Shown: piece by piece, positions 10,235 to 43,569 of the stretch | Position numbering within the stretch: position 1 is the first letter of the stretch | Layout of the letters: every line of letters begins with the position of its first letter | The notes under the pieces: model-generated | Told to the model about the DNA's origin: nothing | What the model saw: the letters and a program-made list of their open reading frames with translations, nothing else | Database searches by the model: none | Made by a program: the position numbers and the translations under genes | Source of the DNA: a virus | Strand: one strand, 5' to 3' | DNA: 43,685 bases | IMG/VR virus record: IMGVR_UViG_3300045988_135432 | Span: 1-43,685 of that record

Positions 10235-10419
10235 TCGAGTAACTGCCCCTCCTTTATTGCGGTAATGAGCGCGCGCTTATAGAGCGCCTTATATGGCTCG
10301 TCCAATGTCACATAGACATTCTCAACGATGTTCGCGACTTCGTTCGTGATCTCTGCGATTTTACCTCTCACTTCGATCTCGCAGATATCTTTCTTGTGGT
10401 CAAGTTTTGCTTTTATCAT
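10231..10419 (-). CDS. Hypothetical protein (62 aa)
   Basis: ATGA-type overlap with the downstream gene. Confidence 0.55.
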   Translation of the reverse strand: MIKAKLDHKKDICEIEVRGKIAEITNEVANIVENVYVTLDEPYKALYKRALITAIKEGQLLE

Positions 10420-17037: not shown

Positions 17038-17286
17038 TCAATTATTCTCCCCGAGCAGTGTCGGGATAGTGACGTTAAGTGTGTTCGCGATACGCTGGAT
17101 TTCACCTATCGTAAACGTTTCCGGTCTTTTCCGCCGGTCGCGGAGGGTTGAGTACTTGAACCCCAGCGCGGCGGCGGCAGTTGAGCAGTCAACGCCGTCT
17201 CGCGTCCGTTTCATCATGTAGATGTCAACGGAGTCTCTGAGCGCGTCGAGCTGCTTTTCAGCGACCGTTTTGGACAGCCTCGGCAT
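17038..17286 (-). CDS. Small HTH DNA-binding protein (82 aa)
   Basis: SD AAAGGAG. AAALGFKYSTLRDRRKRPETFTIGEIQRIANTL is HTH-like. Confidence 0.6.
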   Translation of the reverse strand: MPRLSKTVAEKQLDALRDSVDIYMMKRTRDGVDCSTAAAALGFKYSTLRDRRKRPETFTIGEIQRIANTLNVTIPTLLGENN

Positions 17287-17497
17287 TCGCGGCGCTCCTT
17301 TCGTCCATGCTTTTTTCGTAGCGGTAGCAGATGGCGGTTGCCGCCGCGCGGACTTCCTGCGCATAGTCGGAGTTCCGCTCGCCGGAGAGAATCCGGCTGA
17401 GGAAACTGTCCGAGATTTCGTAGCCGAACATACGGAGCTGTGCTATAAGCCATCTCCCGGTCAGCTTATGTGTTTCCAGAAATTTCGATATATCCAT
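17258..17497 (-). CDS. XRE/Cro-like HTH protein (79 aa)
   Basis: LTGRWLIAQLRMFGYEISDSFLSRILSGER is HTH-like. Early operon position. Confidence 0.6.
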   Translation of the reverse strand: MDISKFLETHKLTGRWLIAQLRMFGYEISDSFLSRILSGERNSDYAQEVRAAATAICYRYEKSMDERSAANAEAVQNGR

Positions 17498-18242: not shown

Positions 18243-18271
18243 TTGACAAATCAATGGCAACGTGATATAAT
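18243..18271 (+). promoter_or_regulatory. Perfect consensus promoter TTGACA-17-TATAAT for the toxin-like mini-gene
   Basis: TTGACA 18243-18248, TATAAT 18266-18271. Confidence 0.75.
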
Positions 18272-18320
18272 AGTAGTACCACATAGCAACCGTCGGGTGA
18301 GGGCTCGACACCCTATACTG

Positions 18321-18338
18321 AGAGCGCCACAGAGCGCC
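18321..18338 (+). repeat. Tandem AGAGCGCC-AC-AGAGCGCC in the 5' leader, 10 nt upstream of the SD
   Basis: Exact 8-mers at 18321 and 18331. The same dyad occurs at 38414-38430 and 42192-42208 (minus sense). Confidence 0.85.
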
Positions 18339-18362
18339 GAACCGTAATGGGGAGGTGGTCTT

Positions 18363-18446
18363 GTGAGTAAATTCGAGAAACTGTACCTAACCGTATGCAT
18401 TCTCCAGCTCATCGTTGACCTCTTAATGCTTGGTCTGACGCTTTAA
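18363..18446 (+). CDS. 27-aa hydrophobic peptide (V/M)SKFEKLYLTVCILQLIVDLLMLGLTL, type I toxin / holin-like-toxin candidate
   Basis: GTG 5 nt after GGGGAGGTG. A single predicted TM helix. Under 60 aa, so absent from the ORF track. Confidence 0.55.
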   Translation: MSKFEKLYLTVCILQLIVDLLMLGLTL

Positions 18447-18501
18447 TCAACTGACCGTTTAAGCGACTGAGTTCACTGACATTTCGATTATCGCACATCC
18501 C

Positions 18502-18583
18502 AGAAAATAACCGCATTCAGGAATCCGCCTGAATACGGAGTACCCTCACCCGACGTCGTTTTGCCTGTCACGAATTTGTGACT
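18502..18583 (-). ncRNA. Candidate ~80-nt antisense RNA overlapping the 3' end of the toxin-like mRNA (or the attenuated leader of the early operon)
   Basis: It starts downstream of the perfect minus-strand promoter at 18590-18618. It ends at hairpin 18511-18538, which on the minus strand is followed by TTATTTT. Confidence 0.35.
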
Positions 18584-18589
18584 GATAAT
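18561..18589 (+). promoter_or_regulatory. Candidate repressor promoter TTGCCT-17-GATAAT with an inverted repeat GTCAC-N6-GTGAC in the spacer
   Basis: TTGCCT 18561-18566, GATAAT 18584-18589. Its -10 abuts the -10 of the divergent promoter. Confidence 0.45.
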
Positions 18590-18618
18590 ATTATACTCCA
18601 ACTTTCGTTCTATGTCAA
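18590..18618 (-). promoter_or_regulatory. Perfect consensus promoter TTGACA-17-TATAAT (leftward; early-lytic and/or antisense RNA)
   Basis: Reverse complement: TTGACA = 18618-18613, TATAAT = 18595-18590, 17-nt spacer. Confidence 0.75.
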
Positions 18619-18639
18619 GGGGTTAATAGAACTTTCGTT
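18600..18639. repeat. Two exact copies of AACTTTCGTT, 30 bp apart (operator candidates)
   Basis: Copies at 18600-18609 (inside the spacer of the leftward promoter) and 18630-18639. Confidence 0.6.
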
Positions 18640-18675
18640 GGATTCTGCGATGTGCACAAAGAGGGAGGGAGTACT

Positions 18676-19014
18676 TTGTTCAATATGGACATTTTCAAAG
18701 TTAGAATCAAAGAGCGTTGCAAGATCACCGGTGTGTCTCAAAAGCATCTATGCGATGCAGTTGGCAAAAGCAAACAATATCTGAACAACGTATGGGATGG
18801 TAAATGTAGCGCGACATCCGATGAGATTGCGTCGTTTGCATCAATCCTCTCTACTACTCCCGCCTACCTCACCGGTGAGACTGACGATCCCGCCCCCACG
18901 GGCAGCCCAGACGAGCTGTCCTCCGAAGAAAAAGAACTGCTCGAGCTTTACCGGAGCGTGTCCCCGGAGAAGCAGGAGTTGTTCAAGAAAATCATTGAGC
19001 AGATGAAAGGGTGA
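18676..19014 (+). CDS. XRE-family HTH repressor (CI-like)
   Basis: The TTG at 18676 lies 7 nt after GGAGG (an alternative ATG is at 18685). HTH GVSQKHLCDAVGKSKQYLNNVWDGK. Divergent from the early operon and upstream of int. Confidence 0.8.
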   Translation: MFNMDIFKVRIKERCKITGVSQKHLCDAVGKSKQYLNNVWDGKCSATSDEIASFASILSTTPAYLTGETDDPAPTGSPDELSSEEKELLELYRSVSPEKQELFKKIIEQMKG

Positions 19015-19814: not shown

Positions 19815-20849
19815 ATGATTATGGACAAACTCCCGAGCGGCAGCTGGCGTGCAAGGGTGCTGATAGGAGAGAATAAGTACAAAACGTTTTCGGGCAAGGA
19901 TAAGAAGGACGTGCAGCTCCGCGCTGCACAGTTCGAGGCGGAGAGGAAGATGGACAAGCCTGACGATCCGTATGCGGGCATGACGGTTGGAGAGGCGATG
20001 GAGCGGTACGTCGAGGCGAAGAAGAATACCCTGTCGCCGTCGTCGTACCGCGAATTTACACGCATCAGGTTAAGCAATCTTTCTGCGTTGCGAAATGTAA
20101 AGCTCGCCGACCTGACGCAGGAGCAGGTGCAGCTTGCCATAAGCGCGGAATCCGCCGACCACTCGCCGAAGACTGTCCGCTGTATGCACGGGCTGTTGTC
20201 CTCGACGTTGAAAATGTTCCGACCGGATATGACGTTGCATACGAAACTCCCACAGACGCAGAAGAGTGAGATCGTGATTCCAGAGGAGGTTGACGTCATG
20301 TCTCTGCTGGCGACTGTGCGGGGAAGTGATATCGACGCCGCTGTTCACCTCGGCGCGCTGTGCGGGATGCGGATGTCGGAAATCCTCGGGCTGAGATGGT
20401 CTAAGGTGGACTTCGACGCGAAGACGATCCACATCTGCGCGGCGAAGATTAGAGGGATGGACAACAAAGCTACCATGAAGCTTCCGAAGACCAGAGCCGG
20501 CGACCGGACAATCAGGATGCTGCCCGCCGTCGAGGCGGCGCTCAGACGCGCGTATCAGCCGGATGCAGAGTTTGTCACCACACTGTCGGAGCGTACCGTG
20601 CGGAAGCACTATCAGCATGCGCTTGAGCTGTGCTGTGGCAAGCACTATACTTTTCACGCTCTGCGCCACTATGCGGCGTCTGTGATGATCCTGCTGAATA
20701 TCCCGGTGAAGTACATCGCCGACTATCTCGGGCACGAAACTGAAGACATGGTGAACCGCATCTATGGGCATATTATGCGGGACAAGAAGGATGAAATATT
20801 CGCCCGGCTTGAAGAATATTATAATAACATTTTGCAAAATCCGTCATGA
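19815..20849 (+). CDS. int: Tyrosine integrase
   Basis: Catalytic pattern R...HALRHYAASVM...GH...Y with an SAM-like N-terminal domain. Adjacent to attP. Confidence 0.92.
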   Translation: MIMDKLPSGSWRARVLIGENKYKTFSGKDKKDVQLRAAQFEAERKMDKPDDPYAGMTVGEAMERYVEAKKNTLSPSSYREFTRIRLSNLSALRNVKLADLTQEQVQLAISAESADHSPKTVRCMHGLLSSTLKMFRPDMTLHTKLPQTQKSEIVIPEEVDVMSLLATVRGSDIDAAVHLGALCGMRMSEILGLRWSKVDFDAKTIHICAAKIRGMDNKATMKLPKTRAGDRTIRMLPAVEAALRRAYQPDAEFVTTLSERTVRKHYQHALELCCGKHYTFHALRHYAASVMILLNIPVKYIADYLGHETEDMVNRIYGHIMRDKKDEIFARLEEYYNNILQNPS

Positions 20850-20934: not shown

Positions 20935-21020
20935 AATGAATAAACCGCTTATCAAGCCGATAGGCGGTTTTTTCTTGTATTCATGCGGGTTTTCAGGCGC
21001 TCTTATTCCGCCTCACGTGA

Positions 21021-21086
21021 CGAAATTCCGCCGTCAAAAACGGTATTTCGGAATCAAATCTGTCACGAATCTGTCACGCTGTCATG
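21021..21086 (+). repeat. attP P'-arm repeats (CGAAATTCCGCCGTCA; AAATCTGTCACG, AATCTGTCACG, CTGTCATG)
   Basis: Direct repeats of C(C/T)GTCA(C/T)G-type sites in the same orientation as the P-arm copies. Confidence 0.6.
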
Positions 21087-36636: not shown

Positions 36637-37659
36637 TTAGCCGTTCGTGAGGAGGCGCGCGATCGGGATTTCCTTCGGAGCGAACTTAAGAACCCAGTTT
36701 GCGGACGCCTCGAGCTGCGCGTCGGTGGGGGAGTTGGTCCAGCCGGTGGAAGGCAGCTTGAACGAGAAGCCGTTCGGGTGGATGCACTCGCGGATTCTGG
36801 TGATGAGAGTGTCCTGACCGTTGTTCTTCGTCGGCTCGCGGAAAGTCTCGACCGGCACGTCCTGTCTTGCCCAGCAGTGGCGGAGAACGCCGGTACCGAG
36901 GAGGTAGGTCGTGTACTTCTTAAGGTCCTTGTTCGCCTCGGAGCCGCCGACCGCGGTGACCGGAACGCCGTCGTCGATGATGACGGTATAGCCGTTCACG
37001 GACGCGAGACCGAGGTTCCTCTGGATGCCGTTCGCGTCGGTCTGCTTCCAGTAATCGAGAACCTGGAGGTTTTCGAGGGTGCGGGCGACAGAGGAGTGCA
37101 TGATAGCGAGCTTGTACGCGTCCTTGTTGTCGCCGAGGGTATCGGTCGCAAGGTCGTTGAGGTCGGTCTCGTTAATCTTTCTCGCGGTCGCGGTCGCGGA
37201 GCCGACGTCGACGGTGTGAGCGGTCCACGCGGCGTTGCCGGTGATGCCGAAGATTGCGCCGAGGATGGCGATAATCTTCTTCTGGCGGTACTTCGCCCAG
37301 AATTTCGCGGTGGACGAGATGATGTGGCCCATCGGGTCTGCGCCGGAAAGCTCGCCTACGAAGTCACGCGCGGTCCATGCGACGTCGCGGCCGTACGCGA
37401 CATAGTTCTGCTGGTCTGCCTGGGTCTCGGTCGAGGTAATGTCGGTCTGGCCGTCGTGGTTCACGGGAGTGCCGGCGAGGGTCTTGTAGAACGGAATGGT
37501 GCCGTAGTTGCCGGAGGATATGAGTCTCGAGGCGAGCACCGGGTCTTCAACCATTACGCCGGAATCGAGGAGCGCGGTCTTTTCGGAGTCGGGCTCTGCA
37601 AGCCAGCGGGCAATGAAGAGATCGTCGTCAAAGGGGTAGTTGAGGTAGGTCTTGGACAT
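36637..37659 (-). CDS. Major capsid protein
   Basis: 340 aa; immediately follows the scaffold gene. Confidence 0.85.
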   Translation of the reverse strand: MSKTYLNYPFDDDLFIARWLAEPDSEKTALLDSGVMVEDPVLASRLISSGNYGTIPFYKTLAGTPVNHDGQTDITSTETQADQQNYVAYGRDVAWTARDFVGELSGADPMGHIISSTAKFWAKYRQKKIIAILGAIFGITGNAAWTAHTVDVGSATATARKINETDLNDLATDTLGDNKDAYKLAIMHSSVARTLENLQVLDYWKQTDANGIQRNLGLASVNGYTVIIDDGVPVTAVGGSEANKDLKKYTTYLLGTGVLRHCWARQDVPVETFREPTKNNGQDTLITRIRECIHPNGFSFKLPSTGWTNSPTDAQLEASANWVLKFAPKEIPIARLLTNG

Positions 37660-37695: not shown

Positions 37696-38238
37696 TCACG
37701 CCTTGAAGAGTGCCGCGAATTCGGTCGGATTATCGTTCTTGAACTGGACCTGTTCGGCGAAAGTGAGCTTGCCGAAAGCTTCTTTGGTCATGGCGGTCGT
37801 TGCGGGAGCCTGCGAGGGGGCTTTGACGCCGGCCGCGAGTTCGCCCTTGACCTTGTTCGCCGTCGCTTCTCCATAAGCCTTGAACGCCGCCGCAATCGCC
37901 GTAGCGACCGAGGTCGTCTGTTCTGCGTCAGTGGTGACAATGCCATCGAGGAAGGTCTCGTAGGCTTCCTTGGTCATGCCGTTCCCCGCGAGGATGCTCG
38001 CGGCTTCCTGCCGGTTCGCCTTGACGGTGAGCTGCTCGATCTGCTGCCTCTGCGCTTCGAGGCGTTCGGTCAGAGTGCCTTCATTGGTCTTCATGTCCTT
38101 CTTCGCTTTGGCGAGGTCGGACGCGGTCTTGTCGAAGGTCTCTTTGTTCACGAAGTTCTTGGTCGAGAGCGCCGTCGCGATCTCTTCCGCAGTCATTCCT
38201 TCGCGGTAATCTTCACCGAGTAAATCTCTGAGTTCCAT
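37696..38238 (-). CDS. Scaffolding protein (GP20-like)
   Basis: Helical and charged; AAAGGGA SD before the ATG at 38238 (the upstream ATG at 38283 lacks an SD). Confidence 0.8.
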   Translation of the reverse strand: MELRDLLGEDYREGMTAEEIATALSTKNFVNKETFDKTASDLAKAKKDMKTNEGTLTERLEAQRQQIEQLTVKANRQEAASILAGNGMTKEAYETFLDGIVTTDAEQTTSVATAIAAAFKAYGEATANKVKGELAAGVKAPSQAPATTAMTKEAFGKLTFAEQVQFKNDNPTEFAALFKA

Positions 38239-38317
38239 GTGATAATCCCTTTCTGCGTTTGGTGAGGCGGTTCTCTCCGCCATAGATTCGCGTTTTTCGG
38301 ACTTCTCTGTCCATTGT

Positions 38318-38369
38318 TTAATAAATTAAAACCAGCGTCGCCCCGAGGAGTGGACTTAATAAATTAAAA
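38318..38369. repeat. Two exact copies of the AT-rich 14-mer TTAATAAATTAAAA, 38 bp apart
   Basis: Copies at 38318-38331 and 38356-38369, in otherwise GC-rich DNA upstream of the scaffold gene. Confidence 0.85.
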
Positions 38370-38421
38370 AGAGCGCCAGAACCGACAGGCTGTGTAAAAG
38401 CCTGTAGATATCTGGCGCTCT
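38365..38421 (-). terminator. Branched intrinsic terminator after portal and com
   Basis: Minus strand: AGAGCGCCAGA ... ACAGGCT tttacac AGCCTGT ... TCTGGCGCTCT followed by TTTTT. Confidence 0.7.
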
Positions 38422-38430
38422 TGGCGCTCT
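38414..38430 (-). repeat. Tandem AGAGCGCC-A-AGAGCGCC (minus sense); the second copy forms the 5' arm of the terminator stem
   Basis: ggcgctct at 38414-38421 and 38423-38430 on the plus strand. Confidence 0.85.
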
Positions 38431-38455: not shown

Positions 38456-38641
38456 TTATGACGCGACCGTGCGTATGACGGCGTGTGAGCCTTCTGTGTG
38501 GGCTCTGACCGTCGTTCCGCAGCCGCGACACTTTATCTCCGCCACACCGTTTATTGCTCCGAGGAGCCGCCCACAGTGCGGGCAGCGGACTTTAATCAGT
38601 TCCGGAGCTTCCGCCGCCGGAATCGCTTTTGTTTCCGTCAT
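38456..38641 (-). CDS. com: Mu Com-like zinc-ribbon protein (61 aa)
   Basis: VRCPHCGRLLGAINGVAEIKCRGCG matches the Com pattern (RC..C..LL......E.KC..C). SD GGAGG. The start lies inside the last 50 nt of the portal gene. Confidence 0.75.
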   Translation of the reverse strand: MTETKAIPAAEAPELIKVRCPHCGRLLGAINGVAEIKCRGCGTTVRAHTEGSHAVIRTVAS

Positions 38642-40151
38642 TGCTTCCGCCTCCGGGCTTGTCCGGCCCTGAATTGTCCTGCCCGGCAGCCCCGCTCTGG
38701 AGCCGCGCGGCGAGGTATGGGATCGAGTCGATATACGCCTGGTTCGGATCGTCGAACAGGTGGGGTATACCGAACGCGATTTCGGGGTGTACTCCGGCGT
38801 CGAGAAGGTTCATGAGAGCCTGCGTTTTGACGAGCAGATTCTCGGTGTTGCCCTTCGTGAACCGGATGTCGATGTCGGCGAGCCCTAGGTCGAGCTTGCC
38901 GTATGTTCTGAGGAGCGACAGCGCGATGCGGAGGAACTGTTTTTCGCTTCGTTCCCACTGCATAACGGTGTCTCTGGCGCAGCTTTCCGCCATTGCCCAT
39001 CCGTCGCGGAGCAGTACGGCGTTGCCAGTGTCTCCGGTCGTGCGGTTCGCGCCGTTTCTGTCCGGCATACCGCAGATTGTGAGGGCTTGCTGATAGAGGT
39101 GGTCGATTTCGACCTGTGTCTGCGATTGGTCGAGTTCGGATGAGATGATATCGACGTCCGAGGGGTTTGAGTTGTCCGACTTGATGACGATAGCGCCTTC
39201 CTGCCGGAATTCCTTATACTTCTCGGGGTCTATCTGGCAGTTGACGAATTTAATGAAACTCTGGACGAACTGTTCCGTACCGTCGAGCCGGTTCGAGGAC
39301 AGTTTGTTGATGCCGTCGAGGACTTCGAGAACAACCTCGAAGGAACCGAGCCGCGCGTTGTTGAGCGGGTACTCGATGATCGGAACCGCCCCGATGCCGT
39401 GGAGCCTCGAGGACGTGACTGTGTTGTTCACGATCTCGAACTGCATTGTATCCGTCCAGACGGTGTAGATCGTCTGCTGCTTGTCTCTGAGCGTCTCCTG
39501 GAACGCCATGATGGGCTTCGCGCCGAGCTCTTTCGAGTAGACGACGCCGGTCCGTCTCGGGTCGAGACTGCCGATTTCGATTTTTTCGTCGTTTTCGAGG
39601 CTGCCGATGACATATCGGAACGCGGTTCCGCAGATGTGGTTCCACTCGGCTATGTCGTGGTCGATAGCTTCCTTGTCGAGGACGTGCATGATTTCGTTGA
39701 GCCGCCCGACCTTTTCGGACACCGGATCGCGCGTCTGCGCGGCGGTGATCTCGTCGGGGGTCATGGTCATGCGCGCCTCTCCGCTCCGGATTTTCCGGCG
39801 CGTGTACGCGATGGGCGCTCCGAGAAGATACGCGACCTTGAAGGAGACGATTTCCCACGCGTGATTTTCGACGATTTTGTTGTTGATCTCCGGTCGTACT
39901 TCCTTGACGCGGTTGAGGATGGGCTGTCTGCCCTTGTAGTAGCCGTAGAGATAATTTATGTCGCTCTGGTTCCGGTGAAAGGTCGGAAGGACCTCGTTCA
40001 GCACCTGTACGACGTTCTCCGCGTCGACCGTTTCCGCGTCGGTGTAGATGACGTGTCGTCCGGTCAGTACCGGAGAGACGTCGGGGAGGTCTGCCGCGCC
40101 GAATATGGGTGTTCCGTCGTCCGCATACCCTTCGACTTTTGGTTCCGCCAT
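38592..40151 (-). CDS. Portal protein (SPP1 gp6-like)
   Basis: 519 aa after terL; NYLYGYYKGRQPILNR...NNKIVENHA pattern; Gly/Ser-rich C-terminal tail. Confidence 0.88.
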   Translation of the reverse strand: MAEPKVEGYADDGTPIFGAADLPDVSPVLTGRHVIYTDAETVDAENVVQVLNEVLPTFHRNQSDINYLYGYYKGRQPILNRVKEVRPEINNKIVENHAWEIVSFKVAYLLGAPIAYTRRKIRSGEARMTMTPDEITAAQTRDPVSEKVGRLNEIMHVLDKEAIDHDIAEWNHICGTAFRYVIGSLENDEKIEIGSLDPRRTGVVYSKELGAKPIMAFQETLRDKQQTIYTVWTDTMQFEIVNNTVTSSRLHGIGAVPIIEYPLNNARLGSFEVVLEVLDGINKLSSNRLDGTEQFVQSFIKFVNCQIDPEKYKEFRQEGAIVIKSDNSNPSDVDIISSELDQSQTQVEIDHLYQQALTICGMPDRNGANRTTGDTGNAVLLRDGWAMAESCARDTVMQWERSEKQFLRIALSLLRTYGKLDLGLADIDIRFTKGNTENLLVKTQALMNLLDAGVHPEIAFGIPHLFDDPNQAYIDSIPYLAARLQSGAAGQDNSGPDKPGGGSNDGNKSDSGGGSSGTD

Positions 40152-40295
40152 TCTTTCACCACCAGTTCTTTGAAAATTCGCCCCGACGTGAGAAAGGTTA
40201 AAAACAGCGTCGGGGCGGAGGAGAAAACCATATCCGCAAACGGTGCGGAGCATGGCAGACAGGCGGAAGGGGAAAGGGGTCGCCCGTCATGTAAT

Positions 40296-40353: not shown

Positions 40354-40387
40354 CGAAATTCCGTCATGGAAGGCGAAATTCCGTCAT
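40354..40387. repeat. Two exact copies of CGAAATTCCGTCAT, 20 bp apart, upstream of the promoter
   Basis: Copies at 40354-40367 and 40374-40387. A related CCGTCATG lies at 40284-40291. Confidence 0.8.
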
Positions 40388-40392
40388 ATGTG

Positions 40393-42168
40393 TCAGAATA
40401 CTCGTTTCTGCACCGAGACGATACCCCAGTTTCCGGTGGCAAGGTCCATGAGCTGTGCGAGCGAATCGGGCGCGTCGTCGTGGACGTTCTTGCCGAGTGA
40501 GACGAAGGAGCAGAGCCATTCGATGAACGAACGGTACTCCGGCGTCGAGTGATCGAAATCGAGAAAATGAATCTTCGCGATGTCCGGCGCATATTGGATG
40601 ATGCGGGAGAGCTTTGAGGCGTTGCCGGGCGCGCGGCGCGTCGAGATGTTGAGCGAGCAGCCTTTCGCGCGGAGCATTTCGTCGATTGCCTGCGCGTATT
40701 CGGTTCCGCCGTTGTTCGCCTCGAACTGTACCTGATGCGGGCGGTGGATAAGCAGCTTGCCGACCACTTCGGGCTGTGTGAATACCTTGTTCGCGTTCGA
40801 GAACACCACATCGACGCAGTACATTGAGCCGTCTCCGTACACATAGACGATAGGCATTGACAGATAGTCCTCGCCGCCCCACGCGACGTCGCAAGCAGCG
40901 ATAATGCGCTCCGGCGATCCGCCCGGCAGCACGCCGTTGTAGCGGAGCAGTGAATCCGGCGGAAAGACGAGACCCTGACGGACGTACGGAGCGCCCTGGT
41001 ACTTCGCACACCATGTGCAGTCGTCGATTGACGCTTTCATGTCGCGGTAGTATTCGGTCGAGAATCCGACGCCGTAGTCGTACTGGAAATTGGATTCGCC
41101 GTTCGCGTCGAGCGCGGGAATGACGGTGAAGCGGTATTCGGGATTGTCTCTGTACTGTTCGCGGACGCGCCCGAGAGGATCCATTACGTTCCAGCGCGTA
41201 CCGACCATCAACTGGAGCGCGCCGTCCTTCATACGGTCTTTCATCTGGTTCAGGTAGATGTTGTACTTCGCGTCGAGACGGGAGGGAGACAGCGATTCTT
41301 CGAGGTCTTTCACGAGGTCGTCGACATAGAGGATACCGTCGCGCGAGATGTCGATAGCGCCCGTCCATGTACCTTCCGCCGACCGGCAGGTCATTGTCGG
41401 GAAGCGCTTCGGGTGGTTGAGGTTGATCTGGAGGTACTTCGCCGACCGGCTTTCGACCTGCGCGTGTGGGAACACGTCGTGCCAGAGGTATTCGCCGTCC
41501 GGGTCGAGCACGGCGTTCAGCTCGCCGTAGAAGCCGTTCACGAGCGTGTCGGAGTGCCCGCCCATAGCGGACGCGTCGTCCGGATGCCGCCCCATGTGCC
41601 AGGTCAGGAAAAATATACAAATCGTGGATTTTCCCACGCGAGGCGGCATACTCACCCCGAGAAATTTAATCTTGTGCTCTTCGAGGTCTTGCAGATCGTT
41701 GCACAGCCCCATCAGAACGCTTCTTCTCGGCACCCAGAACTTCCGTGCCGGCTCTCTGTTCCATTCGACGTACTGCATATAGTGATCGAACGAGTGCGGC
41801 GCGAGCAGCAGGCAGACTTTCCGTTTCAGCTCATACCATTCCGGCGCGGCGGCTGTCTTCGCGGCGGCTGACCTCGCGAGCATACGGTTCACGACGTCGA
41901 AGAATTCTTTCCCTTTCGCCACCATGTAGGCGAGCTCTTCCTCGAACGATTCCGCCGAATTGTCCTGCGCGAGCCCCCTCAGCGCGTCGAAGTAGTCTTT
42001 CGCGACCGACAGACTGTCCGTTCCGTACGCCGCGATAGCCTCGCACAGCGCCACGCACTCCGGCAGCCGGTCGTTCCAGTTCTCAAATCCGGGAAGAACC
42101 GTTTTGTTCCCATTCTTTACCTTTTTTGATTTCTTCTTTCCAGTATCTTCACATGAAAAAGCGCCCAT
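40393..42168 (-). CDS. terL: Terminase large subunit
   Basis: Walker A PPRVGKST, Walker B ILYVDDLV, and C-terminal nuclease motifs (ACDVAWGGEDY, HDDAPDSLAQL). SD GAAGGAGA before the ATG at 42168. Confidence 0.92.
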   Translation of the reverse strand: MGAFSCEDTGKKKSKKVKNGNKTVLPGFENWNDRLPECVALCEAIAAYGTDSLSVAKDYFDALRGLAQDNSAESFEEELAYMVAKGKEFFDVVNRMLARSAAAKTAAAPEWYELKRKVCLLLAPHSFDHYMQYVEWNREPARKFWVPRRSVLMGLCNDLQDLEEHKIKFLGVSMPPRVGKSTICIFFLTWHMGRHPDDASAMGGHSDTLVNGFYGELNAVLDPDGEYLWHDVFPHAQVESRSAKYLQINLNHPKRFPTMTCRSAEGTWTGAIDISRDGILYVDDLVKDLEESLSPSRLDAKYNIYLNQMKDRMKDGALQLMVGTRWNVMDPLGRVREQYRDNPEYRFTVIPALDANGESNFQYDYGVGFSTEYYRDMKASIDDCTWCAKYQGAPYVRQGLVFPPDSLLRYNGVLPGGSPERIIAACDVAWGGEDYLSMPIVYVYGDGSMYCVDVVFSNANKVFTQPEVVGKLLIHRPHQVQFEANNGGTEYAQAIDEMLRAKGCSLNISTRRAPGNASKLSRIIQYAPDIAKIHFLDFDHSTPEYRSFIEWLCSFVSLGKNVHDDAPDSLAQLMDLATGNWGIVSVQKRVF

Positions 42169-42191
42169 GACGCCACTCTCCTTCAAGAAAT

Positions 42192-42208
42192 GGCGCTCTG
42201 GGCGCTCT
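42192..42208 (-). repeat. Tandem AGAGCGCC-C-AGAGCGCC (minus sense), 6 nt upstream of the terL SD
   Basis: ggcgctct at 42192-42199 and 42201-42208 on the plus strand. Confidence 0.85.
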
Positions 42209-42655
42209 AAGTATAGGGGTACGGTACTCCGTGCGGCGGGATGCCGGTACGGGATGGTGCGCGGGAATGCCCGCCGATAATTGCTGTTGTTGCTTGTTAT
42301 TCCGTGACCGCTTCACGCGGTCAGGTGAACGTTTGCGGCATCTGTTTGCTGTCTTTCCTTTGCGGAACAGCCGGTTGTGGCTCGGAGACTTAACACTGAA
42401 TCAGCGTTAAATCAGCGTTAAGTCAGCGTTGAACTTGCGCCGCGCTTGCTCATAACTTGCGCCAGTTTACGGTTTGTTTACGTATTGGTTAAAACTTACT
42501 TTGCGCCGGTTGGAACACGGTTCAAGCTAACTTGAAACTAACTTGAAACTAACTTGAACCTGACTTGGAACCCGGTTCAAGGCCGCCGCCCCGTTACACG
42601 TGTTATTGTGTTACGGTGTTACGGCTTGTTGGAGCTTGATTGAGTCTTGGTGGAA
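42209..42655. repeat. Non-coding mosaic of short tandem repeats and hairpins (pac/cos or recombinase-site candidate)
   Basis: (A/G)TCAGCGTT(A/G)A x3 (42399-42431), AACTTGCGCC x2, GTTTACG x2, CTAACTTGAAA x3 flanked by CGGTTCAAG x2 (42518-42581), GTGTTA(C/T) x3 (42599-42620, in ACGTGTTATTGTGTTACGGTGTTACGG). Hairpin TGACCGC ttcac GCGGTCA (42305-42323). Confidence 0.8.
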
Positions 42656-43443
42656 TTATTTCAGTATCGGCTCGTGGGCTCCGGGAACGTAGTCCATGCC
42701 GTCGCCGTATTTGTACAGCCCTTCGTATACAGGCCTGTTGTCACGGATGCTGCGAATGTTCGATTCGCGGAATCTGCCGCCTTTGCGGGTCTTGTACCCG
42801 GCGTCGGATATTGAATCCGCAATTTCCCACAGCGACTTCTTCGCGGCGAGACCGTCGAATACCATGCGGACAATGGGCTCTTCCGCCGGATTGATGACCA
42901 GCTGACCGTGTTCGACTTGGTACCCGTACGGAGCGCGCCCGCCGCTGTAGCCGCCGACTTTCGCTTTGCACTCGCGTCCTTTGCGCGTGCGGAGGGTGAT
43001 GTTTTTGCGTTCCTGCTCTGCCACGAACAGCATAAGCGACCGGTAAATGTTCGACAGCGCGTCGTCACTGTCGAAATGCTCGTTGACTGACAGCAGCTTG
43101 ATGTTCTTCTTTTCGAGTACGTACAGGTAGTAGAAGTACAGCTTCGTGTCTCTTGACAGCCGGTCGGTTTTCGCAATGATCACTGCTTCGTACGGCGGAT
43201 TAGTCATATCGTCGCCGTAGAGCAGTTCGTTCAGCGCGGGGCGGTCTTCCTTCACGCCGCTCACGCCGTCTTCTTCGTACCACTTCACGATTTTGTACCC
43301 GTTGTCGTTGGCGTATTGAAGTATCTGCGCTTTCTGCGAATCTATTCCGAAACGGTCATCCCCGGTCTGCCCATCGGTGCTGACGCGGACATACCCGACC
43401 GCGCTCTTGATTCTGTTGTCGTCGTTCTTGATTTCTTTCCCCA
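42656..43443 (-). CDS. Serine recombinase, short form (resolvase catalytic domain plus recombinase domain; no zinc-ribbon/coiled-coil C-terminus)
   Basis: AVGYVRVSTDGQ catalytic Ser motif, then GGRAPYGYQV...INPAEEPIVRMVF recombinase domain. Ends after 262 aa. SD AAGGAGAA before the ATG at 43443. Confidence 0.85.
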
Positions 43444-43569
43444 TGATTGTTCTCCTTGCATCTATCAAATTTCGCGGAACTGGCCGCCTTCGCCCTCCGC
43501 GCCATGTTCTTGCTCGCGCACCGCCGCCGGTCATACCAGCTCTCGTAGTCATTGCTTTTCGCTGTTACT

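Follow-up and report, generated by a model that had tools for sequence, protein, structure and literature searches.

The tandem repeat AGAGCGCC-N1-2-AGAGCGCC is present in three copies (sites A, B and C, Table 1) in the window, the whole stretch of 43,685 nucleotides of viral DNA analysed here. Judging from sequence comparisons and predicted folds, the three dyads are most probably RNA operators for a small zinc-ribbon protein resembling Com of phage Mu, which is encoded by the phage itself and would compete with inhibitory hairpins for the repeats. A preliminary description had already proposed an element acting at the RNA level with the Com-like protein as the likely factor. The fit of the dyads to a motif selected in vitro, their strand specificity and their recurrence beside Com-like genes support this proposal. 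The same description suggested control of terL, of a small peptide and of read-through into the head genes; such a role agrees with all computational tests that were run.

Table 1. Positions of the dyads and of the genes and signals around them.
Feature	Position	Strand	Remarks
operator A, AGAGCGCC-C-AGAGCGCC (AGAGCGCCCAGAGCGCC)	42192..42208 (read 42208-42192)	-	terL leader; exact match
leader hairpin, site A	42156..42208	-	MFE -35.3 kcal/mol, z = -4.2
G-free spacer CCCCTATACTT	42209..42219	-	invariant in relatives
extra Com-type half-site GAGTACC	42223..42229	-	14 nt upstream of operator A; fits GAGNNCC
terL	40393..42168	-	PHROG 38, terminase large subunit, E = 3.5e-52; putative target of operator A
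com-like gene	38456..38641	-	61-aa CCCC zinc ribbon, VRCPHCGRLL...EIKCRGCG
operator C, AGAGCGCC-A-AGAGCGCC (AGAGCGCCAAGAGCGCC)	38414..38430 (read 38430-38414)	-	starts 25 nt after com stop codon; exact match
intrinsic terminator, site C	38366..38422	-	T-run 38370-38366; MFE -36.8 kcal/mol, z = -7.5
scaffold gene	37696..38283	-	PHROG 172; first gene past site C terminator
major capsid gene	36637-37659	-	PHROG 247; next after scaffold gene
sigma-70-type promoter TTGACA-17-TATAAT	18243..18271	+	12/12 consensus matches
operator B, AGAGCGCC-AC-AGAGCGCC (AGAGCGCCACAGAGCGCC)	18321..18338	+	5' leader RNA; exact match
SD GGGGAGGTGG	18349-18358	+	from sequence; precedes 27-aa ORF
27-aa hydrophobic ORF MSKFEKLYLTVCILQLIVDLLMLGLTL	18363-18446	+	presumed target of operator B
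HTH repressor	18652-19014		family match
degenerate fourth site GAGCGCC-GC-GAATGCC	17282..17297	-	uncertain, could be chance

Frequency of the repeat

Positions and strands of all three dyads were found as first described, and at three of three sites the repeat is oriented in the sense of the local transcript. With no copy in 100 dinucleotide-preserving shuffles, compared to three observed, the number of dyads is beyond chance. The generic form GAGNNCC-N2-3-GAGNNCC occurs at the same three places only (0.24 expected in a first-order Markov model). Read in this register, the dyads become GAGCGCC-N2-3-GAGCGCC with the spacers CA, AA and ACA across the three sites. A candidate for a fourth, degenerate site overlaps the SD (AAAGGAG) and the ATG of an early gene.

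The count of the single 8-mer had to be revised. It occurs 11 times (2.6 expected) and not seven times, and the isolated copies are more than the one noted near 10283. Outside the dyads it was located at 10281, 20996 (-), 35286 (+), 38166 (+) and 38370 (+). The last of these (38370-38377, +) is the complement, which at site C provides the terminator with its 3' arm, and the remaining four are at chance level, two of them lying antisense within genes. A literature search for the 8-mer returned only primers and unrelated matches. When the whole window was compared with the Rfam covariance models, no match reached the gathering score; local scans by E-value in the surroundings of sites A and C found only chance matches of the miRNA type, and relaxed half-site scans with GA[AG]NN[CT]C were too noisy for use.

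The Com-like protein and the operator of phage Mu

The best Pfam family for the window protein is Zn_ribbon_Com (PF10122) with 22.4 bits (E = 8e-5), just under the cut-off of 22.9, and the protein also matches PHROG 6417, a translational regulator (E = 2.7e-5). It has the pattern RCxxCGxLL...EIKCxRC in common with Mu Com, and BLASTP over the ribbon of the two proteins gave E = 4e-4. In an alignment of dyad-adjacent ORFs the cysteines C20, C23, C38 and C41 are invariant; six of 11 such ORFs, among them that of the window, match PF10122 at E <= 0.01 (best 1.1e-12), and an HMM built from this alignment recovers Mu Com with E = 2e-8. Searches with the 61-aa sequence itself revealed only three near-identical proteins (word-indexed protein search), a single unannotated near-identical contig (tblastn against phage records) and generic zinc ribbons (PDB sequence search).

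For the zinc finger of Mu-type Com the SELEX motif NGAGNNCC(N)2-3GAGNNCCNN was reported in 868 of 999 sequences, the selected RNA being the bipartite GAG(N)2CC-(N)2-3-GAG(N)2CC (PMC6483171). All three dyads of the window fit this motif and no other such sites are present in it. In Mu, Com activates the translation of mom (Hattman, Kahmann; Nowacka et al. 2019, PMC6483171); the operator GAATGCC-TGC-GAGCATC lies 5 nt ahead of the mom SD and adjoins the inhibitory stem CCCAC/GTGGG.

Similar to Mu, the phage studied here encodes a CCCC zinc-ribbon protein of about 60 aa and carries a bipartite GAG(N)2CC operator in the mRNA at or just after the com 3' end (site C), as well as one that adjoins or overlaps a hairpin in which the next gene has its SD and start codon hidden (site A). 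As in Mu, the dyad lies within the 3' part of the com coding sequence in the loci L006, L042, L077 and L145. The systems differ in the number of operators, one in Mu compared to three per genome here, and in their targets: a DNA-modification gene in Mu and, as predicted, terL, the scaffold-capsid operon and a 27-aa peptide in the window. A DNA-modification target of the mom type was not found; it is true of Mu and does not define the protein family. Furthermore, Mu-like phages are transposable, whereas the present gut phage is of the siphovirus type and has an SPP1-like portal. Both at site C and in numerous other phages, an intrinsic terminator is the competing structure. Com is therefore predicted to cause transcription antitermination, for which no report concerning this protein was found in the searchable literature.

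Conservation and structure of the three sites

Related phages retain the dyad at the three positions, with 14 distinct relatives for site A, 15 for site C and four for site B. Operators A and B are unchanged in these relatives, and variation in operator C is limited to the spacer. The flanking columns are variable at 41 of 137 positions at site A and 68 of 163 at site C, so that 0 of 17 and 1 of 17 variable dyad columns stand against 30–42% in the flanks.

At site C, sequence and fold bear out the earlier assignment of copy 2 as the 5' arm of the terminator following com. Of its 22 pairs, which are 97% paired across the relatives, four have changed on both sides, a number reached by one of 500 shuffles. 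The 3' arms accept C-to-T (C-to-U) changes preserving G-U pairs, with the dyad itself fixed. Copy 1 is unpaired in the terminator fold yet invariant. If the dyad is held in a mini-hairpin of copy 1 with copy 2 in a constrained fold, the stem next to the U-run is gone; the energy changes from -37.1 to -23.0 kcal/mol and the residual hairpin stops 8 nt before the U-run.

At site A the fold reproduces the pairing of CGCCA with TGGCG around the terL SD. Copy 1 (42208-42199) is paired with TGGGCGCTTT (42167-42158) and copy 2 (42196-42191) with TGGCGT (42175-42170), and the predicted hairpin encloses both the SD GGAGAG (42181-42176) and the ATG (42168-42166). The distance from dyad to SD, first given as 6 nt, amounts to 10 nt for GGAGAG or 7 nt for GAAGGAG. 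A T-run (42160-42156) ends the hairpin, which was flagged as terminator-like by the terminator scan, a property that had escaped the first inspection. Across seven sequences 98% of the cells are paired. Covariation is weak, with one compensatory pair, found in L006, and an observed score that 64 of 500 shuffles reach. This phage, whose TerL is 86% identical, exhibits compensated changes at both sites A and C, and its site A reads GAGCATC-CA-GAATGCC, which corresponds to the half-sites of Mu. The additional half-site GAGTACC upstream of operator A, likewise overlooked before, is kept in all close relatives and in L006 (there GAGCATC-AACA-GAGTACC).

The CCCTATACT part of the spacer is common to sites A and B. 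Its conservation upstream of both sites is counted against the Com model, which leaves CCCTATACT unaccounted for.

Operator B lies about 40 nt into the transcript predicted from the consensus promoter upstream, and the gap of 10 nt to the SD of the peptide was confirmed by reading the sequence. The 27-aa hydrophobic peptide matches no family. The fold of site B is no better than that of shuffles (z = -0.06), and according to the folds the operator mini-hairpin is compatible with the anti-SD helix. Binding of Com would probably control translation of the peptide here, and by analogy with Mu activation is the favoured direction.

Occurrence in other phages

The dyad module is widespread, which the preliminary description had missed. 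An identical dyad overlaps or adjoins Com-like ORFs in L042, L072, L077, L104, L116, L118, L132, L138, L145 and L069, the latter being a fusion counted among the at least 10 lineages that combine dyad and Com. The dyad-bearing phages have unrelated flanks, loops and base composition (36–65% GC). Where the dyad is non-coding, a complementary 3' arm with a T-run follows downstream in 16 of 35 cases and in none of 35 on the opposite strand, compared to none of eight for a permuted control dyad. A Com match was found at 22 of 118 loci with the real dyad and at none of 98 with the permuted one, a comparison that is partly circular because ORFs from nine dyad loci went into the training of the Com HMM. 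In eight of the 10 unrelated loci tested, genes for TerL, portal, protease, scaffold or tail proteins lie downstream.

Distant TerL relatives served as an unbiased set, chosen without regard to dyad or Com. In these phages com directly follows terL. The tandem GAG dyad of the distant Com clade differs in sequence, for example GAGCCAUU-GAGCCAUU, and its copy 2 is again the 5' arm of a terminator. The arrangement of com, dyad and terminator is thus common to both clades.

Other explanations for the repeats

The repeats may be RNA sites for a different trans-acting factor, such as a host RNA-binding protein, another phage protein or a small RNA, with Com uninvolved. Binding by this particular Com is inferred from sequence, and the predictions include a small convergent RNA close to site B, which leaves some room for such a factor. 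However, the predicted RNA contains no GGCGCTCT complement, and in sense orientation such complements are confined to the terminator arms; with no other complementary RNA, the repeats were rejected as small RNA targets. A host factor would not explain why the dyad travels with Com genes over hosts of very different GC, and the operator sequence shifts when the Com clade shifts. We consider involvement of another factor instead of Com unlikely.

Cis-acting structure alone, with hairpin, terminator and attenuator arms made alike by duplication and no protein in trans, could account for the finding that the repeats form 5' arms of stable, conserved hairpins. It does not account for copy 1 at site C, which is invariant though unpaired in the terminator, nor for the same 16–18-nt dyad beside Com-like genes in phages of unrelated flanks. 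The dyad also fits a motif selected by a protein, and the permuted dyad shows none of these associations. Such an origin is therefore highly improbable.

The repeats can hardly be DNA sites, be it operators of a CI-like repressor in the manner of stoperators or late promoters with TATACT as -10 and the dyad at +1, even if an HTH repressor is encoded in the window, CCCTATACT precedes two of the three dyads and their orientation follows transcription as in the stoperators of mycobacteriophage L5. Sites A and C have no -35 element, site B is already served by a perfect promoter 50 nt upstream and TATACT is absent from unrelated dyad-bearing phages, on which grounds the promoter variant was discarded. 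Operators or stoperators were ruled out by the strand-specific coupling to terminators (complementary arm and T-run in 16 cases against 0) and by substitutions that preserve G-U pairs on the sense strand only. The stoperators bound by gp71 of L5 are short, asymmetric, transcription-oriented DNA repressor sites, found in early as well as late operons, and number dozens per genome. The dyads resemble them in being short, asymmetric and oriented with transcription; in contrast, there are only three, none of them at an early promoter, and they bear strand-specific signatures at the RNA level.

Proposed mechanism

For the favoured reading, that the dyads are RNA operators of Com, the following course can be envisaged. 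Without Com, for instance in a lysogen or at an early stage of infection, the hairpins would form. Transcription of the portal-com unit would then halt ahead of the genes for scaffold and capsid, and terL would be neither read through nor translated. Com would be supplied by the portal-com transcript, which could originate at a consensus promoter (40324-40296). On accumulating, the protein would bind the dyad on the nascent RNA, ahead of transcription of the 3' arm; the bound dyad may be single-stranded or folded into a small GCGC:GCGC hairpin with CC-N-GAG in the loop. By withholding the 5' arm, binding would block the hairpin. At site C the terminator would then fail and allow read-through to scaffold, capsid and downstream genes, and at site A the SD and AUG of terL would be freed, so that Com may act as a feed-forward late switch.

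At sites A and C the hairpins are 13–14 kcal/mol more stable than the state compatible with Com, and the model consequently needs co-transcriptional, kinetic capture. The mini-hairpin between copy 1 and copy 2 gains support from the variants GCGC:GCGC, GCGU:ACGC and GCAU:AUGC. As the dyad of the GAGCCAUU clade is not self-complementary and cannot fold in this way, the mini-hairpin was rejected as the universal bound form.

Relation to known regulators

Similar to BglG, SacY and LicT at their RAT elements, a protein is predicted to act on a short RNA element overlapping the 5' half of a terminator and to block the latter by a local mechanism confined to a single terminator. The overlap of the binding element with the 5' arm is found at site C and at the 16 of 35 non-coding dyads elsewhere. 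The proteins are unrelated in build, a CAT-PRD dimer there and a 61-aa zinc ribbon here, so that Com would work alike and not be a member of that family. BglG, SacY and LicT further depend on a sugar/PTS signal and an imperfect RAT hairpin, whereas a tandem GAG repeat and no such signal occur here. With the lambdoid N-nut and Q systems and HK022 put, the proposed switch has in common the phage-encoded control of read-through into late genes and repeated sites in sense orientation. Those systems belong to other protein families and act through a processive modification of RNA polymerase. In the present phage each terminator or SD hairpin physically incorporates the operator, which points to occlusion at the site itself, unlike N, Q and put.

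In Pseudomonas and Haemophilus, com-linked genes comprise llpA bacteriocins, tailocin cargo and lysis genes, levansucrase and hin1523-type methyltransferases, and the general regulatory role of the Com homologues was called unexplored by the authors, including in a 2018 review (PMC6240691, PMC3299994). Those loci likewise have a short com gene directly ahead of a gene that is harmful if expressed untimely. They differ in concerning single accessory genes of Proteobacteria, for which a coupling of operator and terminator is not described.

For about 40 years Com has been regarded as specialised in activating the translation of a single accessory gene, mom. We tend, on balance, towards a broader role, in which Com-like zinc ribbons are a widespread and hitherto unrecognised class of RNA-binding antiterminators and translational activators that switch on the late genes of many tailed phages across bacterial phyla, with an operator that co-varies with the Com clade. 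The operator would be a tandem GAG repeat that also serves as 5' arm, be it of an intrinsic terminator or of a hairpin sequestering the SD, and is placed ahead of terL, portal, protease/scaffold or tail genes. In the phage studied here the regulon would reach the lysogeny module, with three operators including that of the type I toxin-like peptide encoded there. If this holds, a 60-aa zinc ribbon and a 17-nt tandem repeat would make up a compact, portable switch, and antitermination would gate terminase and head or tail genes in many uncultured phages, among them those of the human gut. The repeat would provide a simple sequence signature by which the limits of late operons could be annotated in metagenomic phages. 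The switch would also offer a testable model of what keeps strong consensus promoters harmless within a prophage, as well as a small orthogonal pair of protein and RNA with which termination could be controlled synthetically.

Near-identical whole-phage contigs were also encountered within MAGs of Akkermansia and Gastranaerophilales, where they are probably binning artefacts.

Results and Discussion

The window derives from a temperate tailed phage of human gut origin. As claimed in the preliminary description, the tandem dyad AGAGCGCC-N1-2-AGAGCGCC occurs in it exactly three times, with exact matches in the terL leader (site A), in a peptide leader (site B) and after com (site C), and in none of 100 dinucleotide-preserving shuffles. 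All three dyads are in sense orientation relative to local transcription, confirming the orientation reported earlier. The assumption of only one isolated 8-mer elsewhere was too low: AGAGCGCC was counted exhaustively at 11 copies versus 2.6 expected. Six of these are members of the dyads, and the site C terminator provides a seventh as its complementary 3' arm (38370-38377, +). The remaining four (10281, +; 20996, -; 35286, +; 38166, +) are at chance level, two of them antisense within genes.

Features of the window (positions in nt)
Feature	Position	Strand	Remark
Site A dyad	42208-42192	-	terL leader
Site B dyad	18321-18338	+	peptide leader
Site C dyad	38430-38414	-	after com
Extra half-site GAGTACC	42229-42223		conserved
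Degenerate dyad GAGCGCC-GC-GAATGCC	17282-17297	-	conserved in relatives
TerL gene	40393-42168	-	
SPP1-type portal gene	38592-40253	-	
com-like gene	38456-38641	-	61-aa zinc ribbon; best Pfam family Mu Com
Scaffold gene	37696-38283	-	
Major capsid protein gene	36637-37659	-	
27-aa hydrophobic ORF	18363-18446	+	
HTH regulator gene	18652-19014	+	lysogeny operon
Zinc-ribbon membrane protein gene		+	lysogeny operon
Tyrosine integrase gene	19815-20849	+	lysogeny operon
Resolvase-like gene	42656-43552	-	298 aa; resolvase and recombinase domains
Promoter upstream of site B	18243-18271	+	12/12 TTGACA-17-TATAAT
Promoter facing it	18618-18590	-	12/12
Late-region promoter	40324-40296	-	12/12; between terL and portal
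Fourth promoter	43598-43570	-	12/12
Terminator of convergent RNA	18538-18511	-	
13-nt inverted repeat CGTCGGGTGAGGG	18291-18303, 18543-18555		
CCC(C)TATACT at site A	42209-42219	-	directly 5' of dyad
CCC(C)TATACT at site B	18311-18319	+	directly 5' of dyad
GACGGAATTTCG, two direct copies	40354-40385	-	20 nt apart
Palindromic relative of GACGGAATTTCG	21019-21032		
AACGAAAGTTC direct repeats	18599-18641		minus-strand reading

In SELEX against a Mu-like Com zinc finger, 868 of 999 sequences carried the bipartite RNA motif NGAGNNCC(N)2-3GAGNNCCNN, and the authors suggested that CC(N)2-3GAG is recognised within a hairpin loop (Nowacka et al. 2019, PMC6483171). With spacers CA, AA and ACA between GAGCGCC halves, the dyads fit this motif exactly and are the only sites of this type in the window. 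In phage Mu, GAATGCC-TGC-GAGCATC lies inside the com 3' end; it precedes the mom SD by 5 nt and adjoins the CCCAC/GTGGG inhibitory stem. Its two half-sites are those of site A in L006, a relative with 86% identical TerL (L numbers denote contigs compared). Motif fit, strand specificity and com co-occurrence support, at the level of sequence, the earlier proposal of an RNA element with the Com-like protein as candidate binder. Com family and operator motif are already known, and no Rfam family covers the dyad element. In the searchable literature we found neither a Com operator coupled to intrinsic terminators nor Com control of core morphogenesis genes nor several Com operators per genome; a 2018 review regards the general role of Com homologues as still to be explored.

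Structures at the Three Dyads

Site C starts 25 nt past the com stop codon. In a long hairpin that TTTTT follows, the second (3') copy together with AGA makes up the 5' arm and TCTGGCGCTCT the 3' arm; the first copy is unpaired within this fold. With -36.8 kcal/mol (z = -7.5), 22 pairs that are 97% paired across nine sequences, and four pairs changed on both sides (matched in 1 of 500 shuffles), the previously assigned role of the second copy as terminator arm is well supported. At site A, both copies are paired: copy 1 (AGAGCGCCCA) with UGGGCGCUUU, which contains the terL AUG, and copy 2 (GCGCCA) with UGGCGU just 3' of the SD. The latter agrees with the CGCCA/TGGCG pairing noted before. A U-run follows the hairpin, whose fold has -35.3 kcal/mol (z = -4.2). 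The structure thus conceals both SD and AUG, and it also resembles an intrinsic terminator. The extra half-site is located upstream of this dyad.

At site B, transcription from the upstream promoter starts about 40 nt before the dyad, which is therefore part of the RNA leader. The distance of 10 nt between dyad and SD of the hydrophobic ORF was verified. The local fold at this site is not better than shuffles; longer folds enclose the dyad in a pairing between CCCUAUAC and the AUGGGG of the SD. The Mu precedent and the recurrent link of Com to harmful genes (PMC6240691, PMC3299994) favour activation of the peptide by Com late in infection.

The surroundings of site B (18243-18620) are laid out like a type I toxin-antitoxin system. 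A perfect minus-strand promoter faces that of the peptide ORF, and its terminator would yield a convergent transcript some 75 nt long. The 13-nt inverted repeat predicts 5'/3'-end pairing of the plus-strand RNA; in the relative L099 it carries one change, with a U-G pair kept. CCC(C)TATACT is invariant in relatives, pairs with the SD in site B folds and is dispensable as a promoter.

Occurrence in Other Phages

The search of related phages (TerL 93-99% identical) revealed that sites A and C are kept in 14 and 15 distinct versions, respectively. Variable columns amount to 0 of 17 in dyad A and 1 of 17, a spacer column, in dyad C, compared to 30% and 42% in the flanks. The 3' arms accept C-to-T changes that preserve sense-strand G-U pairs. 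As the dyads do not vary in this way, the 5' arm must be constrained beyond base pairing. In L006, diverged dyads (GAGCATC-CA-GAATGCC at site A, GAGCGTC-ATG-AACGCC at site C) are compensated by matching 3'-arm changes. In the early region, the degenerate dyad overlaps the SD (AAAGGAG) and ATG of a gene; it may represent a further, repressive Com site, the fourth in the window, or have arisen by chance.

An exact-dyad scan of viral contigs returned at least 119 stretches, compared to 98 for a control dyad with the same bases in permuted order; many of the exact-dyad matches are located in long ORFs and probably due to chance. Among the matches listed, 35 of 109 distinct contexts lie outside long open frames (control: 8 non-coding). 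A GGCGCU-type complement with a T-run within 110 nt downstream accompanies 16 of these 35, with none on the opposite strand and none for the control. Com-HMM matches were obtained at 22 of 118 listed loci versus 0 of 98. In unrelated contigs, Com-like ORFs adjoin or overlap the dyad, which lies within the com 3' coding region in L042, L077 and L145, and 0-210 nt after the com end in L118, L132, L116, L072, L104 and L138. In L069 (447-2775), a portal-MuF protein carries a Com-type zinc ribbon as a C-terminal fusion. In an alignment of 11 ORFs, the window Com and dyad neighbours from unrelated contigs, six match Pfam Zn_ribbon_Com at E ≤ 0.01 (best 1.1e-12), and an HMM built from the dyad-adjacent Com-like ORFs recovers genuine Mu Com (E = 2e-8). 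Morphogenesis genes follow the dyad in 8 of 10 unrelated phages tested (2 TerL, 1 portal, 2 head protease, 2 scaffold, 1 tail protein). In L069, a tRNA-Met gene (2648-2723) lies between the fused ribbon and the Com operator with terminator, which precede a protease/capsid gene.

Distant TerL relatives (36-42% identical), chosen regardless of dyads or Com, have a Com-like gene immediately 3' of terL. At its 3' end a different tandem dyad was found: GAGCCAUU-GAGCCAUU, GAGCCAU-U-GAGCCGAUU or GAGCCGU-GAGCCAUUAAG. Here too the second copy supplies the 5' arm of an intrinsic terminator, and AAUGGCUC and a U-run make up its 3' arm. Scanning for GAGCCATTGAGCCATT gave three further lineages with terminators. 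These are flanked by a small Cys-rich ORF on one side and a scaffold-like gene on the other, or by a resolvase-like gene and terL. These loci indicate a conserved architecture of com, tandem GAG dyad and terminator, in which the operator sequence shifts with the Com clade.

Proposed Mechanism

The operators overlap terminator or SD hairpins, and Com bound to the nascent dyad would keep it from the 3' arm. Where half-sites are self-complementary, they could form a 4-bp mini-hairpin that displays CC-N-GAG in the loop, in line with the proposal of the SELEX study. The pairings are GCGC:GCGC in the window, GCGU:ACGC in L006, L082, L131, L132 and L152, GCAU:AUGC in L006 and AUGC:GCAU in Mu. Enforced at site C in a constrained fold, the mini-hairpin leaves a residual stem ending 8 nt short of the U-run, which is not terminator geometry. 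This state lies about 14 kcal/mol above the MFE, which implies that capture by Com must be co-transcriptional. The dyad of the GAGCCAUU clade is unable to form such a mini-hairpin, so that direct occlusion of single-stranded RNA is the more general description. The late-region promoter could drive portal and com; Com would then open its own downstream terminator, with read-through into scaffold, capsid and following genes, and would also open the terL leader. Com-dependent terminators may be part of how strong consensus promoters stay silent in the lysogen.

The two exact GACGGAATTTCG copies lie just 5' of the -35 in the late-region promoter, and a palindromic relative is found near 21025; they may be bound by another regulator. 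At the minus-strand promoter starting at 18618, the AACGAAAGTTC repeats flank the -35; lying shortly before the HTH regulator gene, they are candidate repressor operators.

L154 and L155 are whole-phage contigs of 44-46 kb (TerL 97-99% identical), binned in MAGs named Gastranaerophilales and Akkermansia muciniphila, host assignments that contradict each other. In the near-identical relatives L008, L010-L012 and L155, the terL match spans 2256 nt rather than 1773. The terL insertions in some near-identical relatives (L007-L012, L155), measuring about 483 nt or, near the 5' part, about 1 kb, are a possible intron, intein or homing element. Upstream of terL (42232-43552), no recognisable small terminase gene was found. 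The resolvase-like gene located there is followed by a 450-nt spacer with four short tandem arrays (period 8-11 nt, about 3-4 copies each), and protein and arrays might act as a TerS/pac surrogate. The order resolvase-like gene, Com operator, terL also occurs in the unrelated contigs L193 and L075.
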